Positions 2,520 through 36,195 of a stretch of 40,336 nt of DNA are shown one piece after another. Position 1 is the stretch's first letter. The number at the start of each line of letters is the position of its first letter. The DNA lies in assembly GCA_964418145.1 (NCBI GenBank), contig CAYQKC010000002.1, positions 1 through 40,336 on the forward strand, read 5' to 3'. This DNA comes from an uncultured Candidatus Saccharibacteria bacterium (GTDB lineage: Bacteria > Patescibacteriota > Minisyncoccia > Phycocordibacterales > UBA9973). The position numbers were made by a program, and so were the translations under genes. The notes under the pieces were generated by a model. The model was not told the DNA's origin, made no database searches, and was given only the letters and a program-made list of their open reading frames with translations.

Positions 2520-3617
2520 ATGAGCAAAGACTATTACAAAATATTGGGCGTAGAAAAAAATGCCTCCAAAGATGAAATCAAGAAGGCTTTTTATAAATTG
2601 GCGCATAAATATCATCCAGATAAAAAGGAAGGGGACGAAAAGAAATTTAAAGAAGTCAACGAAGCTTACCAAGTGCTTTCGGATGAAGCAAAAAGGTCAA
2701 AATACGACCAATTTGGAGCCGGTTTTGAAAATATGAATCAAGGATATGGAGGACAAGGCCAGGGCTTTTCCGGTTTTGATGGAGGGTGGGATTTTTCAGG
2801 ATTTGGCGGGGAAGCTGGCTTTGATTTTGGCAACTTAAACGATATTTTCAGCGATTTCTTCGGCGGAGGCATGGGTTCTTCTAGAAGCGAACAAAGGCGC
2901 GGGCGCGATATCTCAACCGAGATCCAAATTTCTTTTTCCGAATCTGTTTTCGGCGTGACTCGAAAAATTTTGCTTACCAAGATATCAAAATGCGGTATTT
3001 GCGGAGGTTCAGGCGCTAAAGCAGGAACGAAAATGGAAACTTGCAAATACTGTAACGGCCAAGGGAAAATTCATGAAGCAAAAAGGACGATCTTAGGCAC
3101 GATTTCTAGCACCAAACTCTGCCAGGAATGCCTGGGTACCGGGCAAGTGCCGAAAGAAAAATGCGAAACTTGCAAGGGCAAGGGCGTTTTGCGCAAAGAA
3201 GAAGAAATCACTGTCGATGTACCTGTCGGTATCCGTGACGGCGAGATGATCCGCATGTCCGGCATGGGCGAGGCGATTTCCAAGGGCACCGCCGGAGATT
3301 TGTATATCAAAATAAATGTGTCTTCGCATCCGGTTTTCAAAAGGGAAGGCAATGATTTGACGATGAATCTTGATCTCAAATTGACCGACGCCCTGCTCGG
3401 CACAGAATATCCTATACATACTTTGGATGGAGATATAACGGTAAAAATCCCGGAAGGCGTGTCTATTAATGAAATTTTAAGAGTAAAAGGCAAAGGAGTG
3501 CCGGCCGGTAAATCAAAGCGCGGAGACCTTTTAATCAAGCTCAAAATTAAAATGCCTTCCAAAATTTCGCGCAAATCCCGCGAACTCATAGAAAAATTAA
3601 AAGAAGAGGGAATCTAG
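2520..3617 (+). CDS. dnaJ: molecular chaperone DnaJ
   Basis: J-domain DYYKILGV...KYHPDK, a G/F-rich linker, and CxxCxGxG zinc-finger repeats ([32 protein letters not shown]). Confidence 0.95.
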
Positions 3618-3618
3618 A

Positions 3619-5331
3619 ATGGAAGACAAAAAGAAAAATTGTCAAAATTGTGGAAAAAATTTTGAAATAACAAAAGATGATTTTTCTTTCTACGAAAAAA
3701 TCAGCGTTCCGCCGCCTACTTTTTGCCCGGAATGCAGGATTATAAGGCAATTTTCTCACAGAAATGAAAAGATTCTTTATAAGAGAGATTGCATGGTGCC
3801 CGGTCACACGGAAAAACTGATTTCAATGTATTCTCCGAATAGCGCCATGACGGTATACGATACAAATTATTGGTGGGGAGACCAATGGGACCCGATGAAT
3901 TTTGGAGAGGAATATGATTTCTCAAAAAATTTCCTTGAGCAATTTTACGCGCTTCAGGCTAAAGTACCGCGGCCGCCTTTGGTAAACAACAAGTCATTGA
4001 ATTCTGAATTTTGTAATTTCTCCGATGAAAATAAGAATTGCTACCTGATTACTTCAGCCAACAGAAACGAGAATAGTTTGTATGGCTTCGGCTTGGTGGA
4101 CAATAAGGATATTTCCGACTGCTTATGGTGTTCTGGATGCGAGCTCCTATATGAAAGCATAGATTGCGAAAAGTGTTATGACACTATGTACTCGCAACAA
4201 TGCGAAGGCTGCGTCAGCTCGGCTTTTCTTTTTGATTGCCGGGGTTGCAATAATTGTCTCTTTTGTGTTCATTTAAGAAATAAATCTTATTACATTTTCA
4301 ATAAACAAAGCACGAAGGAAGAATACGATAATTTTAAGAAAGAATTTGGCAAACTTGCCAGCTTGAAAGATTTGATACAGAAATTTGAGGATTTTAAGAA
4401 GAAAGAATCAATGCGGAAATATGCGAATATATTGAAATCGGTAAAGTCATTGGGAGAAAATATTTTTACTTCCAAAAATATAAATCGCGGTTTTGATGTT
4501 TATCAATCTGAAGATTCGTCCTATCTGGAAGAAGGATTGAATGCCAAAAACTGTTACGATTTATGTTTTTTTGACACCGTGGAGCTTTCTTACGAATCTA
4601 GTAGCGTGGGATTGCCGGCTTACGGCTGTTTTTTCACTATCTTTTGCCGGGATTCGCACAACTTGCAATATTGCGATAATTGCCGCGGATCCAAGGACCT
4701 TTTCGGCTGTGTTAGTTTGAGAAATAAACAGTATTGCATATTAAATAAACAATATACAAAAGAAGAATATGAAACCCTGGTCAGCAAAATAATTAAACAT
4801 ATGGGCAATATGCCATATTTAGACAAAAAAGGCAGGATTTATAAATATGGGGAGTTTTTACCCACAGAATTGTCTCCCTTTGCCTACAACGAGACGATTG
4901 CTCAAGAATATTTTTCGTTGAGTCGCGGAGAAATTTTAAAAAGAGGATATAAATGGAAAGAAAATTCTGAAAGGAATTATATTATTGACATCAAGAATGA
5001 GAAAATTCCGCAAGAAATTGCAAATATGCGGGAAGATATAGTGGGCAAGGTCTTGGAATGCAAGCATAAAGGCAAATGCAACGAACAATGTACAGAGGCT
5101 TTTAAAATAACTGAAGAAGAATTCAAATTTTACAAGAAGATGAATTTACCACCTCCCAGATTTTGTCCCAACTGTAGGCACTACAATAGATTAAAACAGC
5201 GTAATCCTTTGAAGCTCTGGCACAGGAAGTGCATGAAAGAAGGATGCACCAATGAATTTGAGACCTCCTATGCCCCAGAGAGGCCGGAGATTGTGTATTG
5301 CGAGGGGTGTTATAATAAAGAGGTTTATTAG
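3619..5331 (+). CDS. large Cys-rich protein with zinc-ribbon modules at both termini and an internally duplicated Cys-rich core
   Basis: N-terminus CQNCGKNFEITKDDFSFYEKISVPPPTFCPECR. C-terminal part FKITEEEFKFYKKMNLPPPRFCPNCR ... YCEGCYNKEVY. The core repeats (...CVHLRNKSYYIFNKQSTKEEYD / ...CVSLRNKQYCILNKQYTKEEYE). Starts 1 nt after the dnaJ stop. Confidence 0.8.
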   Translation: MEDKKKNCQNCGKNFEITKDDFSFYEKISVPPPTFCPECRIIRQFSHRNEKILYKRDCMVPGHTEKLISMYSPNSAMTVYDTNYWWGDQWDPMNFGEEYDFSKNFLEQFYALQAKVPRPPLVNNKSLNSEFCNFSDENKNCYLITSANRNENSLYGFGLVDNKDISDCLWCSGCELLYESIDCEKCYDTMYSQQCEGCVSSAFLFDCRGCNNCLFCVHLRNKSYYIFNKQSTKEEYDNFKKEFGKLASLKDLIQKFEDFKKKESMRKYANILKSVKSLGENIFTSKNINRGFDVYQSEDSSYLEEGLNAKNCYDLCFFDTVELSYESSSVGLPAYGCFFTIFCRDSHNLQYCDNCRGSKDLFGCVSLRNKQYCILNKQYTKEEYETLVSKIIKHMGNMPYLDKKGRIYKYGEFLPTELSPFAYNETIAQEYFSLSRGEILKRGYKWKENSERNYIIDIKNEKIPQEIANMREDIVGKVLECKHKGKCNEQCTEAFKITEEEFKFYKKMNLPPPRFCPNCRHYNRLKQRNPLKLWHRKCMKEGCTNEFETSYAPERPEIVYCEGCYNKEVY

Positions 5332-5383
5332 ATACATATATCTAGCGGTAGCAGGATATATGTATGAAAAAAATTAAAAAACG

Positions 5384-5419
5384 TTAGTATACAGTATATT
5401 GTATACTAAGAATTTTTTT
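5384..5419 (+). terminator. intrinsic terminator after the dnaJ/Cys-rich operon
   Basis: Stem TTAGTATAC (5384-5392) pairs with GTATACTAA (5401-5409) around an 8-nt loop, followed by GAATTTTTTT. Confidence 0.6.
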
Positions 5420-5427
5420 AAAAAGTA

Positions 5428-5997
5428 ATGTTGCCGGAAGAAATAATTTGGATAGGTGTCTTAATAAATTTGTTTTTCAGCCTCTGGTATATAAGAAGCA
5501 TTTTTAAAAGCGGAACAAGGCCGAATTTGGTCTCTTGGGTGATCTGGATGTTAGCGCCATTTATCGGAACTTTCTTGGCGCTTCAGGCCGGTGCCGGGTT
5601 TTCGGTGACGGACATATTTATGGCCGGTTTCGGTCCGCTTTTGGTGATCATTTTTTCTACTTGGAAGAAAAATGCTTTTTGGAGAATAGAAAAATTCGAC
5701 TTGCTCTGCGGAGCTTTTTCTGTAATTGCTCTTATTGTTTATATTTCTACTTACAATCTGAGCATTTCAATTATTTTTGCCATCTTAAGCGATGGCCTGG
5801 CAGCAGTGCCAACGATAAAAAAATCCTGGAATTTCCCGGAGACGGAAAGTTTTTCCGTATACTTTGGCGGAATAGTGAATAATGTTTTATCCTTGCTTAT
5901 CGTAAAAAGTTGGAGTTTTCCTATTTATTCTTTCAATGTTTATTTTGTTTTGATAAACATCGTAATAATTTTTGCAATTTACCGCAAAAAATTATAA
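5428..5997 (+). CDS. hypothetical polytopic membrane protein
   Basis: 189 aa with about six hydrophobic segments and no recognised catalytic motif. Its 3' end overlaps the convergent arginase-family gene by 19 nt. Confidence 0.65.
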   Translation: MLPEEIIWIGVLINLFFSLWYIRSIFKSGTRPNLVSWVIWMLAPFIGTFLALQAGAGFSVTDIFMAGFGPLLVIIFSTWKKNAFWRIEKFDLLCGAFSVIALIVYISTYNLSISIIFAILSDGLAAVPTIKKSWNFPETESFSVYFGGIVNNVLSLLIVKSWSFPIYSFNVYFVLINIVIIFAIYRKKL

Positions 5998-15355: not shown

Positions 15356-16732
15356 ATGAAAATAACATTTAAGAATAAAAAAATAACGAAGCCGAAAGAT
15401 ACGCTTTTTGTTTCCGTAAATCCTCAAAATGAAGATGAGATAGTCAAAGAAAACGGCACCAAAACCCTTTATCTCAAGTGTGAAGAGAAGATGACCTTGC
15501 GGAAGCTTTTCTTGCTTTTGAGGAAAGTCGTAGCACTCGCAAAGGGCGTGAAAGCGGAAAAAATATCCATTGATTTCAATGATTTTAAATTCAAAAATGT
15601 AAAAATTACGAACGAAGAATTGGCTCAAATCATGGCTACGGAATTCAGCTTGGCCAACTATGAATTTATCGAATATAAATCAGAAAACAAAAGCGCATTT
15701 ATAAAAGAAGTTTACGTAGAAAATGCCGGCGCGAAAATTTATAAAAGTTTTGAAAAAGGAAATGTCATTGCCGAAGAGGTAAATAAGACCAGAACCTTGG
15801 CCAATATCCCCGGCGGAGATATGACACCTAAAATTTTGGCGGGGAAAGCGAAAGAAGCGGTAAAAGGTTTGCCGGTGAAAGTAAGAGTACTCGGAGAAAA
15901 AGAAATGGAACGGGAAAAAATGCGGGCGATACTTTCTGTCGGTCGCGGATCAGACGAAGAATCTAAATTTATTATCTTGGAATACTGGGGAAATAAAAAA
16001 GATAAAAAGCCGATAGTGCTAGTCGGTAAAGGAGTGACTTTTGATACCGGCGGAATAAACTTGAAACCATCTAACGGCTTGCTTGGTATGAATATGGACA
16101 TGTCTGGAGGAGCGTCGGTTATACACGTAGTAGCGCTGGTGGCAAAAATGAAATTAAAGGTAAATGTAATCGGGCTCGTTCCTTCAGTAGAAAATATGGC
16201 TTCCGGCAAAAGTTATCGCCCAGGGGACGTGATCCGTTCAATGTCCGGCAATACTATAGAAATTTTGAATACCGATGCCGAGGGTAGAGTTATTTTAGCC
16301 GACGCCCTTGCCTATGCCAAAAAATACAATCCGGAAACGGTGATAGATGTAGCCACTTTGACCGGCGCAGCCGTGGTCGCCCTGGGAGAAAGGATTTCCG
16401 CATTATTTACCGACAACGACAAACTTTCCGAAGAATTGGAAAAATCAGGGGAAGAAACAGGGGATTATGTCTGGCGCCTGCCTCTTTGGGAAGAGTATGA
16501 AAGCGACATAAAAGGATCGCTCGGAGACTGGACGAATATACACAACAAAGATTCCCGCTATGGGGGTGCAATTTACGGAGCTATATTCCTATATCAATTT
16601 ATAAAAGGCATTCGGTGGGCGCACATAGACATAGCTCCGCGCATGGCTTCCATCCCTGGCGAATACCTTTCCTCCGGCGCCTTGGGCGCTCCGGTTAAAT
16701 TGCTGTTTAAATTTTTAGAAAAATCGGTATAG
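15356..16732 (+). CDS. pepA: leucyl aminopeptidase (M17 family)
   Basis: VGKGVTFDTGGINLKP, NTDAEGRVILADAL and ATLTGA. Confidence 0.9.
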   Translation: MKITFKNKKITKPKDTLFVSVNPQNEDEIVKENGTKTLYLKCEEKMTLRKLFLLLRKVVALAKGVKAEKISIDFNDFKFKNVKITNEELAQIMATEFSLANYEFIEYKSENKSAFIKEVYVENAGAKIYKSFEKGNVIAEEVNKTRTLANIPGGDMTPKILAGKAKEAVKGLPVKVRVLGEKEMEREKMRAILSVGRGSDEESKFIILEYWGNKKDKKPIVLVGKGVTFDTGGINLKPSNGLLGMNMDMSGGASVIHVVALVAKMKLKVNVIGLVPSVENMASGKSYRPGDVIRSMSGNTIEILNTDAEGRVILADALAYAKKYNPETVIDVATLTGAAVVALGERISALFTDNDKLSEELEKSGEETGDYVWRLPLWEEYESDIKGSLGDWTNIHNKDSRYGGAIYGAIFLYQFIKGIRWAHIDIAPRMASIPGEYLSSGALGAPVKLLFKFLEKSV

Positions 16733-17461
16733 ATGGAAAAGGAAACTTATAAAATAAAAACGGGAAATTTTGAAGGACCTTTCCATCTGCTCCTTTCATT
16801 GATCGAAGAAAAAAAATTTTTCATCAATGATCTTTCTTTAGCTCAAGTCACAGAAGATTATCTGAATTATGTAAACAGTCTCGAGAAATCAAATCATGCG
16901 CAAATCTCGAGTTTTATCATAGTGGCTGCGACCCTTATCCTCATCAAATCAAAATCGCTCTTGCCGAACCTGAATCTCACTTCCGAAGAGGAAGGGAATA
17001 TAAAAAATCTGGAAGAGCGCCTGAAACTTTACGAGCTTTATACCAAATTGTCCGGGAATATAAAGGAACTCTTCGGGGATAAAATAATTTTTGCTCCGGA
17101 AGAAAGAAAGCATGATTTTTTGGTTTTTCTGCCCGATGAGCAAATTACCAAAGAAAGCATGATGGCTTTTGCCCATCTCGCGCTTGATAAAGTCCCCTCC
17201 AAAACATTTCTCCCGAAAGTAGAAGTGAAGAAAGTTATAAGTATTGAAGAAATGATATCAAAATTAACCGAGAGGATAGAAAAATCCATACAGATGAATT
17301 TCAAAGATTTTGCCGGTTCTGCTAAAACAAAAGAAGAAAAAATCTTTGTAATTATCGGTTTTCTTGCTATGCTAGAGCTAGTGCGGCAGGGAATTTTAGA
17401 AGCGATACAAGAAGATAATTTCAAGGACATTTTAATAGAAAAGAACAATGGAGATAGATAA
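16733..17461 (+). CDS. scpA: segregation and condensation protein A
   Basis: FEGPFHLLLSLIEEKK at the N-terminus and a kleisin-like C-terminus. Followed by scpB. Confidence 0.88.
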   Translation: MEKETYKIKTGNFEGPFHLLLSLIEEKKFFINDLSLAQVTEDYLNYVNSLEKSNHAQISSFIIVAATLILIKSKSLLPNLNLTSEEEGNIKNLEERLKLYELYTKLSGNIKELFGDKIIFAPEERKHDFLVFLPDEQITKESMMAFAHLALDKVPSKTFLPKVEVKKVISIEEMISKLTERIEKSIQMNFKDFAGSAKTKEEKIFVIIGFLAMLELVRQGILEAIQEDNFKDILIEKNNGDR

Positions 17462-34414: not shown

Positions 34415-34485
34415 TGGGAGATCGTCTAACGGTAGGACAGAGGCCTTTGAAGCCTTTAATCTAGGTCCGATTCCTAGTCTCCCAG
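34415..34485 (+). tRNA. trnQ: tRNA-Gln (anticodon TTG)
   Basis: TGGGAGA-TC-GTCT-AACGGTA-GGAC-A-GAGGC-CTTTGAA-GCCTT-TAAT-CTAGG-TCCGATT-CCTAG-TCTCCCA-G. It has the U1-A72 pair typical of Gln. The T-loop is atypical (TCCGATT). Confidence 0.82.
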
Positions 34486-34556
34486 CTTTGAGGAGAAGTT
34501 AGGTAGTTAAAGAGAAATAATATAATTGAATTGATGAAGATTTTTATGTTTCAAAT

Positions 34557-35758: not shown

Positions 35759-35777
35759 ATCTCGGCTTTGCCGAGAT
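35759..35777 (+). terminator. hairpin after the orphan pair (possible terminator)
   Basis: ATCTCGGC-TTT-GCCGAGAT, followed by TTCAATG...TTTTCTTTTTTG. The U-tract is not immediately adjacent. Confidence 0.35.
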
Positions 35778-35799
35778 TTCAATGTTAGGTATTTTCTTT

Positions 35800-36035
35800 T
35801 TTGTTGCCAGCTCGCAAAAAAATTCGCCCCGTATTCCCCCCGCATCCTCCGGCACGGCGGGAACCCCCGCCAGCATTTCAAAAATCAGTCTCGGTTTTGC
35901 GAACCATTCCTCCCGCAAAATAGTTTCATAAAACCGAGCCCATTTTATATTTAGAACACTCCGTACTTTTCCTTTGGAAAAGAGGCACATCATTGTGCCT
36001 GTCTGCCTTTGGCAGGCGCGGAGTGTTCTTTTCGC
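35800..36035. other. GC-rich, hairpin-dense non-coding element (candidate structured RNA or DNA element); strand undetermined
   Basis: Local hairpins are GGCGGG-AACC-CCCGCC and CTCGG/TTTTGCG...CGCAAAA/CCGAG. An 11-bp outer stem (35953-63 with 36019-29) encloses three perfect hairpins. Confidence 0.4.
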
Positions 36036-36039
36036 TTTG

Positions 36040-36135: not shown

Positions 36136-36180
36136 AATAAAATTAAAAGCAAAACAACGTAACCTTACGGGGTTACGTTG
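36136..36180 (-). terminator. intrinsic terminator of the Gre-like gene
   Basis: The minus strand reads CAACGTAACC-CCGTAA-GGTTACGTTG, followed by TTTTGCTTTTAATTTT. Confidence 0.7.
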
Positions 36181-36195
36181 CCTGTTTAAAATTTA

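Follow-up and report, generated by a model that had tools for sequence, protein, structure and literature searches.

A covarying four-way junction beside tRNA-Glu, very probably an optional arm module of serine-recombinase islands at tRNA ends

The junction and its setting next to tRNA-Glu

The analysed DNA, referred to as the window, is a stretch of 40,336 nucleotides from an uncultured Candidatus Saccharibacteria bacterium (contig CAYQKC010000002.1). Within it, the convergent genes of tRNA-Gln(UUG) and tRNA-Glu(CUC) enclose two orphan open reading frames, a small hairpin and, close to the 3' end of tRNA-Glu, the structure studied here (Table 1). The latter is situated between two convergent units, namely the 256-aa ORF and the tRNA-Glu gene, from whose 3' end it is separated by a gap of 9-10 nt. 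The initial annotation, which had been made from the sequence alone, described it as a 77-nt four-way junction comprising three perfect hairpins, located 10 nt from an opposite-strand tRNA-Glu and followed on the plus strand by TTTTCGCTTT. The sequence as well as RNAfold calculations for both strands bear out the junction, its coordinates and its hairpins. The neighbouring gene is tRNA-Glu(CUC) on the minus strand, and TTTTCGCTTT is present directly 3' of the junction, where the plus strand carries a U-rich tail (TTCT-TTTCGCTTT).

All 32 base pairs of the window junction are standard pairs (32/32). Its plus strand (35953-36029) folds into the four-way junction with an energy of -47.4 kcal/mol compared to -19.7 ± 3.1 kcal/mol for shuffled sequences, none of 200 of which folds as well (z = -8.93). 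The minus strand adopts the mirror structure with -39.8 kcal/mol (z = -8.07). The stability of the junction is thus far beyond chance. A terminator scan flags its 3' part. Neither ARAGORN applied to 35953-36029 nor a search of both strands of this segment against Rfam 15, done at the gathering threshold and with E <= 10, yields a match, and when the window and five intact island loci are searched against Rfam the tRNAs are the only matches. With its loops of 3-4 nt the junction displays no features of a D-, T- or anticodon loop. It is therefore not a tRNA-like gene; that it is not a tRNA had already been stated in the initial annotation. Being present as a single copy in its own genome (507 kb, 35 contigs, 99% complete), it is not a dispersed palindromic repeat of the REP/REPIN or MITE-like kind either. 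We would like to add that a 13-bp hairpin with a U-tail is found on the minus strand at 36152-36183, between a Gre-like gene and tRNA-Glu; it is a candidate for the ordinary terminator of the Gre-like gene.

Table 1. Positions of the features at the tRNA-Glu locus of the window and, in the last two lines, of variant arm modules in related genomes
Feature	Position	Strand	Remarks
tRNA-Gln(UUG)	34415..34486	+	convergent with tRNA-Glu; left limit of the putative 1.55-kb remnant
Two orphan AT-rich ORFs, 132 and 256 aa	34557..35738	+	GC 0.33-0.36
Small hairpin TCTCGGCTTTGCCGAGA	35759..35777	+	3' of the 256-aa ORF
Inner arm modules	35825..35951	+	81% identity to arm consensus; align with intact arms
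Hairpin A remnant, broken	35825-35862	+	no longer folds
Hairpin B	35890-35938	+	one mismatch and one wobble; CU-rich loop
Four-way junction	35953..36029	+	folds; match to covariance model R1 with 39.3 bits, E = 1.5e-6
Outer stem, 11-12 bp	35953-63 with 36019-29	+	AGAACACTCCG with CGGAGTGTTCT; sequence and fold
Three 7-bp hairpins inside the outer stem	35966-82, 35983-36000, 36001-17	+	loops 3-4 nt, almost no linkers
Spacer, 9 nt	36030..36038		TTTCGCTTT; on the tRNA strand CAC followed by AAAGCGAAA
tRNA-Glu(CUC)	36039/40-36113	-	ARAGORN and Rfam; the island family inserts at its 3' end (attB-type site)
Flipped helix-2 loops	G085:C4:58513-58588 (one arm of a pair), G080:C25:6446-6521, G061:C5:68689-68764, G058:C5:160-232
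Arms with an extra hairpin	L015 about 3210-3260; L019, both arms; L042, L043, L045, L049, L051, L055

A covarying fold within the arms of tRNA-end islands

When the intergenic region is compared with sister genomes by BLAST, positions ~35815-36020 match several places per genome with 73-84% identity, often as an inverted pair separated by 2-5 kb. The four-helix design is kept throughout in ten copies compared in register, while the sequences of the helices differ. The outer stem, for instance, reads AGAACACTCCG/CGGAGTGTTCT in the window, GCGTGCCTCG/CGAGGCACGC in locus L010 and AGCGTTTCCCGC/GCGGGGAACGCT in locus L012. Of 151 sampled family genomes, 42 contain the junction according to a covariance model (R1), with about 90 copies distributed over 22 of 45 genera; outside the family, the model detects copies in 11 of 150 genomes of the same order. 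Within the family the window copy is the weakest match (39.3 bits) and the most divergent member.

Covariation was evaluated in an Infernal alignment of 61 matches, 42 of them distinct; MAFFT misaligned the divergent variants. In this alignment, which is fitted to the model and thereby favours the structure, although independent single-sequence folds agree with it, standard pairs occupy 97.3% of the cells, compared to 85.3% upon shuffling of columns and 30-64% upon sliding of the partners. Changes on both sides are observed in 26 of the 32 base pairs, and the covariation score amounts to 0.374 versus 0.157, a value reached by none of 500 shuffles. Looking for compensatory changes in relatives, as proposed along with the original description, thus reveals covarying homologues for all four helices. 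Unpaired bases are nowhere conserved in the alignment. Some divergent copies contain broken pairs, from which it follows that pairing is not kept automatically; this points to selection. Judged from these comparisons, the junction is a structure under selection and kept by evolution. It is a widespread, uncatalogued and strongly covarying fold.

Nearly all junction copies reside in inverted-repeat arms of about 0.3 kb which belong to islands at the 3' ends of tRNA genes. From the outside in, such an arm is composed of the tip, the junction, hairpin B and hairpin A. The part beside the junction, which is conserved in sequence, comprises two hairpins whose loops are rich in C and U, and is present in 55 of 201 sampled family genomes and 23 of 45 genera. 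Paired copies are always ordered (-,+) with the junction ends pointing outward. Self-comparison of 27 fetched loci (L010-L036) reveals inverted repeats of 180-420 bp (IR1) which are 90-100%, mostly 95-100%, identical. In many loci a second, perfect pair of 115-240 bp (IR2) abuts IR1 with an overlap of about 3 nt. The junction itself is optional, as it behaves as a clean presence/absence indel of about 75 nt and is missing from the arms of L020, L028, L029, L030 and L032. Since a helix 2 was nowhere seen apart from the junction, the latter constitutes a unit. Dispersed copies across genomes were not found; in other genomes the copies sit in island arms, where inverted pairs prevail.

In their make-up the arms are mosaics, the hairpin modules being optional. 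Their inner modules are of at least two types, and in some arms hairpin B and the junction are separated by an additional long hairpin (e.g. CTGCACACCAC...GTGGTGTGCAG). No correlation between the presence of the junction and the orientation of the cargo is seen across 11 loci. Two further details of the arms may be mentioned. The two arms of L019 (3112-3188 and 5738-5814) differ in helix 2 of the junction, which reads CACCACGC in one and CTCTGTGC in the other, each being fully paired; this looks like the replacement of a whole helix and not like a point change. Furthermore, a small hairpin of the TCTCGGCTTTGCCGAGA type followed by TTTCAAT(A/G)TT..GTATTT is located just inside the arms of L049, L051 and L064 as well as in the window (35759-35795). 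It may represent a further conserved module at the boundary of arm and cargo; alternatively, with TACAAT on the opposite strand, it may be a promoter directed inward.

The placement within arms bears on the idea that the junction is a stable small RNA in its own right or a tRNA mimic, e.g. a processing signal or decoy for RNase P/Z. Such an RNA would be in keeping with the cloverleaf-like size and four-helix shape, with the adjoining tRNA and with a helix-2 loop which, on the outward strand, frequently reads C(UUCG)G. Matches to tRNAs or Rfam families and D-, T- or anticodon-loop features are absent, however, the loops are variable and flippable, and no conserved promoter of its own is seen. 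Moreover, the junction is optional and always embedded in an arm, while its proximity to a tRNA is explained by the att site described below. The stable RNA module or tRNA mimic initially considered, against which the want of conserved unpaired bases also speaks, is thus not sustained, and we regard it as very unlikely. In contrast, we hold it to be highly probable that the junction is an optional, structure-conserved arm module of islands which are integrated by a large serine recombinase into the last bases of tRNA genes in small genomes of the CPR/Patescibacteria type. A published description of these tRNA-end 'twin-attP' islands was not found in the literature.

Recombinase, crossover and the island relic in the window

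IR2 brackets a protein of about 520 aa whose domains (Resolvase, Recombinase, Zn_ribbon_recom) identify it as a large serine recombinase (LSR). Its gene adjoins the arms in 17 of the 27 fetched loci and is convergent into the tRNA 3' end in all of the fully mapped islands (9/9). One IR2 arm, made up of the last 40-80 codons, is the real 3' end of the LSR gene, the other an inverted duplicate upstream of the LSR start. Starting from the tRNA 3' end, which overlaps IR2 by about 4 nt, the order is LSR, inverted IR2, IR1 arm with its tip first, cargo and inverted IR1, and the chromosome continues after the distal inverted IR1 arm. This layout is shared by L010 and L015, in which IR2 and LSR were located separately, and by the mapped loci L017, L021, L025, L026, L027, L030, L031 and L033. 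The tRNAs at the mapped islands are those for Glu, Tyr, Val, Ser, Thr and Phe. The cargo is different each time and largely defence-like, examples being a PemK/MazF-like toxin, a Schlafen AlbA_2 protein, a metallophosphoesterase and a type IIG restriction-modification enzyme with a PD-(D/E)XK nuclease. The junction is always located between the recombinase stop codon and the cargo.

Two other kinds of mobile DNA were also considered. Against a terminal repeat of a DDE-type IS or MITE, neither a transposase nor target duplications are present, structure and not sequence is conserved, and the sole conserved protein is a serine recombinase. An invertible segment of the Gin/Cin type finds no support in the assemblies, as the LSR is convergent with the tRNA in all nine mapped loci.

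Contig 10 of the genome from which the window derives contains LSR genes at G000:C10:677-2257 (L090) and G000:C10 about 16300-17100 (L091). They overlap the 3' ends of tRNA-Ala(UGC) and tRNA-Thr(UGU), respectively, and their products share 27-32% identity with the L010 enzyme; both loci represent additional islands of this general type. At L021 (2570-2660) the sequence TTAAACGA follows a tRNA-Arg at the distal end of the island, and the same bases open IR2 after tRNA-Val at the other end. The tRNA-Arg site is possibly a second att site or a scar.

The arm tip ends in the same bases as the tRNA, and an identical IR2 sequence follows both. In L027, the tip ...AGTTCAC and the tRNA end ...GGGGTCAC are each continued by ATTTCGAAAC. 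The shared end bases together with the shared IR2 sequence imply that the internal tip/IR2 boundary is an intact inverted attP-like site, that the tRNA/IR2 boundary is attL-like and that the distal tip/flank boundary is attR-like. In the arm tip, GTTC(G/T)A is positioned 23-24 nt from the boundary, while GTTCGA of the tRNA T-arm is positioned 18-19 nt from it in seven of the eight loci in which the spacing was read (L017, L021, L025, L026, L027, L030, L031, L033), tRNA-Phe of L033 being without GTTC. According to the structures reported for the LI integrase in complex with DNA, the outer motif recognized by serine integrases is displaced by about 5 bp between attP and attB half-sites, and the offset of about 5 nt between tip and tRNA supports an assignment of the attP/attB type. 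Apparently, the half-site of the recombinase thus imitates the universal T-arm motif, displaced by about 5 nt in the manner of attP, which may be the reason why one recombinase family uses many tRNAs.

The junction starts 43-57 nt from the crossover, i.e. the repeat boundary, and thus beyond the half-site of about 25-30 bp. Hence, it is not the recombination site itself: the att core of a serine integrase extends within about 25-30 bp of the crossover and contains the binding motifs, and these motifs sit in the arm tip. Of the recombination site suggested initially, the tie to a recombination system is retained, while the position outside the crossover does away with the site as such. The same distance weighs against an integron-attC-like folded single-strand site for the exchange of cargo cassettes. 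Although such a site would likewise combine a conserved structure with a variable sequence and bracket swappable defence-type cargo, the sole conserved recombinase is a serine enzyme acting on duplex att sites, the crossover takes place at the arm tip, the copies are inverted instead of direct, and the junction is optional. Like the free-standing tRNA-like RNA, a site of this kind is unlikely, and we give it even less credence.

If IR2 is read across the crossover into the IR1 tip, which corresponds to the gene of the excised circle, the frame remains open for 14-19 codons and yields conserved tails such as ...FARTFFQ..., ...KIRTYFESNPDDTEY or ...QVRTYFQN(K/R). The RT[FY]F motif is present in 45 of 50 distinct arm contexts. 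In 45 of the 50 contexts the stop of this frame precedes the junction by 0-17 nt, and it is never inside the latter; the TAG opening the outer stem (TAGCG...CGCTA) provides it in 24 cases. In arms devoid of the junction, hairpin B directly follows the stop. The open frame and the position of its stop imply that the IR1 arm represents the tail of the recombinase gene plus a 3' untranslated region in which the junction comes first after the stop codon. The 14-19 tail codons (...RT[FY]F...) would then double as P half-site. An outward-directed TTGAAA-17-TACAAT, regarded as a candidate promoter of the recombinase, was downgraded since, on the opposite strand, this stretch encodes RT[FY]F and serves as the half-site.

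Compared with this architecture, the window combines homology to the arm modules in sequence and structure with a location at a tRNA 3' end. Its arm is collinear with intact arms from the inner end through the junction, whereupon the tip of about 50 nt is absent. No RT[FY]F tail and no GTTCGA half-site were found at the window locus, nor were a recombinase, IR2 or a second inverted arm, and the search of its own genome revealed one arm only. Lacking recombinase, second arm and tip, the window holds an island relic and not an intact member of the family; we infer that the 1.55-kb stretch remained after deletion of the recombinase module along with the arm tip. While the junction is perfect, the neighbouring arm modules are decayed and fold weakly (z = -2.55). 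The 132- and 256-aa ORFs, for which Pfam gives no match and the larger of which has no homologues among 200 family genomes, are presumed to be leftover cargo. The proximity to tRNA-Glu is explained by the end of this tRNA being the insertion site of the island. Judged by its bases, the 9-nt spacer is similar to what follows tRNA-Glu in sister genomes, be it native or att flank, with CAC followed by AAAGCGAAAA in the window and by AAAACGATT or AAAACGCGC in the latter.

In the sister genome G011 (L083, G011:C2) a serine recombinase of 515 aa is encoded at 3996-5577, overlapping the orthologous tRNA-Glu(CUC) beside rmuC. The identity of this enzyme amounts to 24%, and the presence of a distantly related enzyme at the same tRNA indicates that different recombinase lineages use one tRNA end.

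Possible roles of the junction and comparison with known systems

Both strands of the junction fold almost equally well, the mean energy being -46.2 kcal/mol in outward and -43.9 kcal/mol in inward direction. G·U pairs number 41 outward and 15 inward of about 1280 (~3%). As this bias is weak and 17 of the 41 fall into one column, the wobble test does not settle the strand. Scarce G·U pairs are expected if both strands must pair. In four copies the helix-2 loop TTCG is flipped relative to the rest of the junction (Table 1), and between the two arms of L012 (1706-2007 and 4492-4794) the 17-nt loop of hairpin A is reverse-complemented. These flips look like small stem-mediated DNA inversions; they indicate that hairpin inversions happen at the DNA level and that the orientation of the loops is unconstrained. 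They also undermine the cUUCGg tetraloop as a hallmark of RNA, the more so as its complement is the stable DNA mini-hairpin GCGAAGC.

The favoured reading of the function is the one closest to the 'complex terminator' among the options of the initial annotation, with its 'DNA cruciform' as the main rival. As a combined explanation, an island-arm module which stops or insulates transcription is the best overall and, in our judgement, probable. For the function taken by itself, we tentatively propose that the junction acts alike on both strands, as a transcription stop, insulator or 3'-end cap placed between convergent units. Being a hairpin cluster of great stability, it would stop or insulate transcription on either strand and cap the 3' ends of RNAs; in intact islands it would separate the convergent recombinase and cargo, and in the window the 256-aa ORF and tRNA-Glu. 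This proposal draws on the constant place of the junction after the recombinase stop, on pairing in both strands, on the setting within the window along with the U-tail and the flagged 3' part, and on the perfect state of the window junction next to decayed modules. In most relatives, however, a U-run does not abut the outer stem on either strand, which argues against a canonical intrinsic terminator. The constant position could also reflect one ancestral insertion instead of a function, and the junction-less arms show that the junction is dispensable, which counts against a stop function.

The few wobbles and the flipped loops fit a palindrome at the DNA level equally well. In this case the junction would be a cruciform or single-stranded fold beside the P half-site. 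It could be an accessory element with an influence on recombinase action, on synapsis or on how the excised circle replicates; alternatively, the palindrome would be a neutral or selfish insertion tolerated immediately behind the coding tail. Besides the near-equal folding of both strands, the rarity of G·U pairs and the inverted loops of helix 2 and hairpin A, the shortness of the loops (only 3-4 nt), the want of conserved unpaired bases, the clean indel of about 75 nt and the insertion of extra hairpins at the same spot in L015, L019 and L042 speak in its favour. Yet serine integrases need no accessory sites, and the junction is outside the half-site. Furthermore, it never occurs as a free dispersed palindrome, the broken copies reveal that pairing is not automatic and thus suggest selection, and one strand exhibits a modest excess of G·U pairs. 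We therefore consider a DNA-level element somewhat unlikely, although it has to be taken seriously beside the transcription stop.

A more specific reading, which we deem doubtful, is a cis-regulatory structure of the recombinase, acting as a 'tRNA-antisense stand-in' that would couple expression or stability to the integration state. The recombinase mRNA of the excised form would end in the junction, and that of the integrated form in the antisense of a tRNA gene, likewise a cloverleaf-shaped four-way fold, so that the same kind of transcript 3' end, or the same DNA cruciform, would be present in both states. If true, this would amount to a new kind of control for serine integrases.

With these results, an unexplained "cloverleaf" becomes a defined part of a mobile element, a fold which starts at the stop codon of the recombinase gene in its excised form. 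The host islands are a main carrier of defence-type cargo in ultra-small bacteria. Their recombinases are of practical interest for genome insertion, for which coding, att and accessory parts of the arm first need to be told apart. For annotation, the junction model is useful as it flags arms and relics from which the recombinase is gone.

Known elements with large serine recombinases (phiC31, Bxb1, A118/LI and SPbeta SprA, CcrAB of SCCmec, TnpX of Tn4451) resemble the islands in the combination of Resolvase, Recombinase and Zn-ribbon domains, in site-specific insertion and in the outer motif of the two half-site types being about 5 nt apart. The islands differ from them in that they target a wide range of tRNA genes at the extreme 3' end, in that the recombinase gene spans the crossover, in a second, inverted attP-like copy giving rise to two abutting inverted-repeat pairs, and in an arm with structured modules including the four-way junction. 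With rho-independent or bidirectional terminators the junction shares a GC-rich stable fold after a stop codon and between convergent genes and, in the window, the U-rich tail on the plus strand. In contrast to these, it has four helices instead of one hairpin, and most relatives are without an abutting U-run. Integron attC sites likewise are folded sites of conserved structure and variable sequence which flank exchangeable cassettes, whereas the junction comes with no tyrosine integrase, R/L boxes and extrahelical bases were not recognized in it, its copies are inverted, and the crossover takes place elsewhere. Finally, the inverted terminal repeats of parvoviruses/AAV contain terminal palindromes, T-shaped hairpins with flip and flop forms. 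Like these, the junction is a branched palindrome with small hairpins inside an outer stem, either end of a mobile unit carries a copy in opposite orientation, and loops or hairpins are occasionally flipped. The junction is associated neither with a physical DNA end nor with a Rep/HUH protein but with a duplex island moved by a serine recombinase; its resemblance to the AAV repeats is one of shape only.
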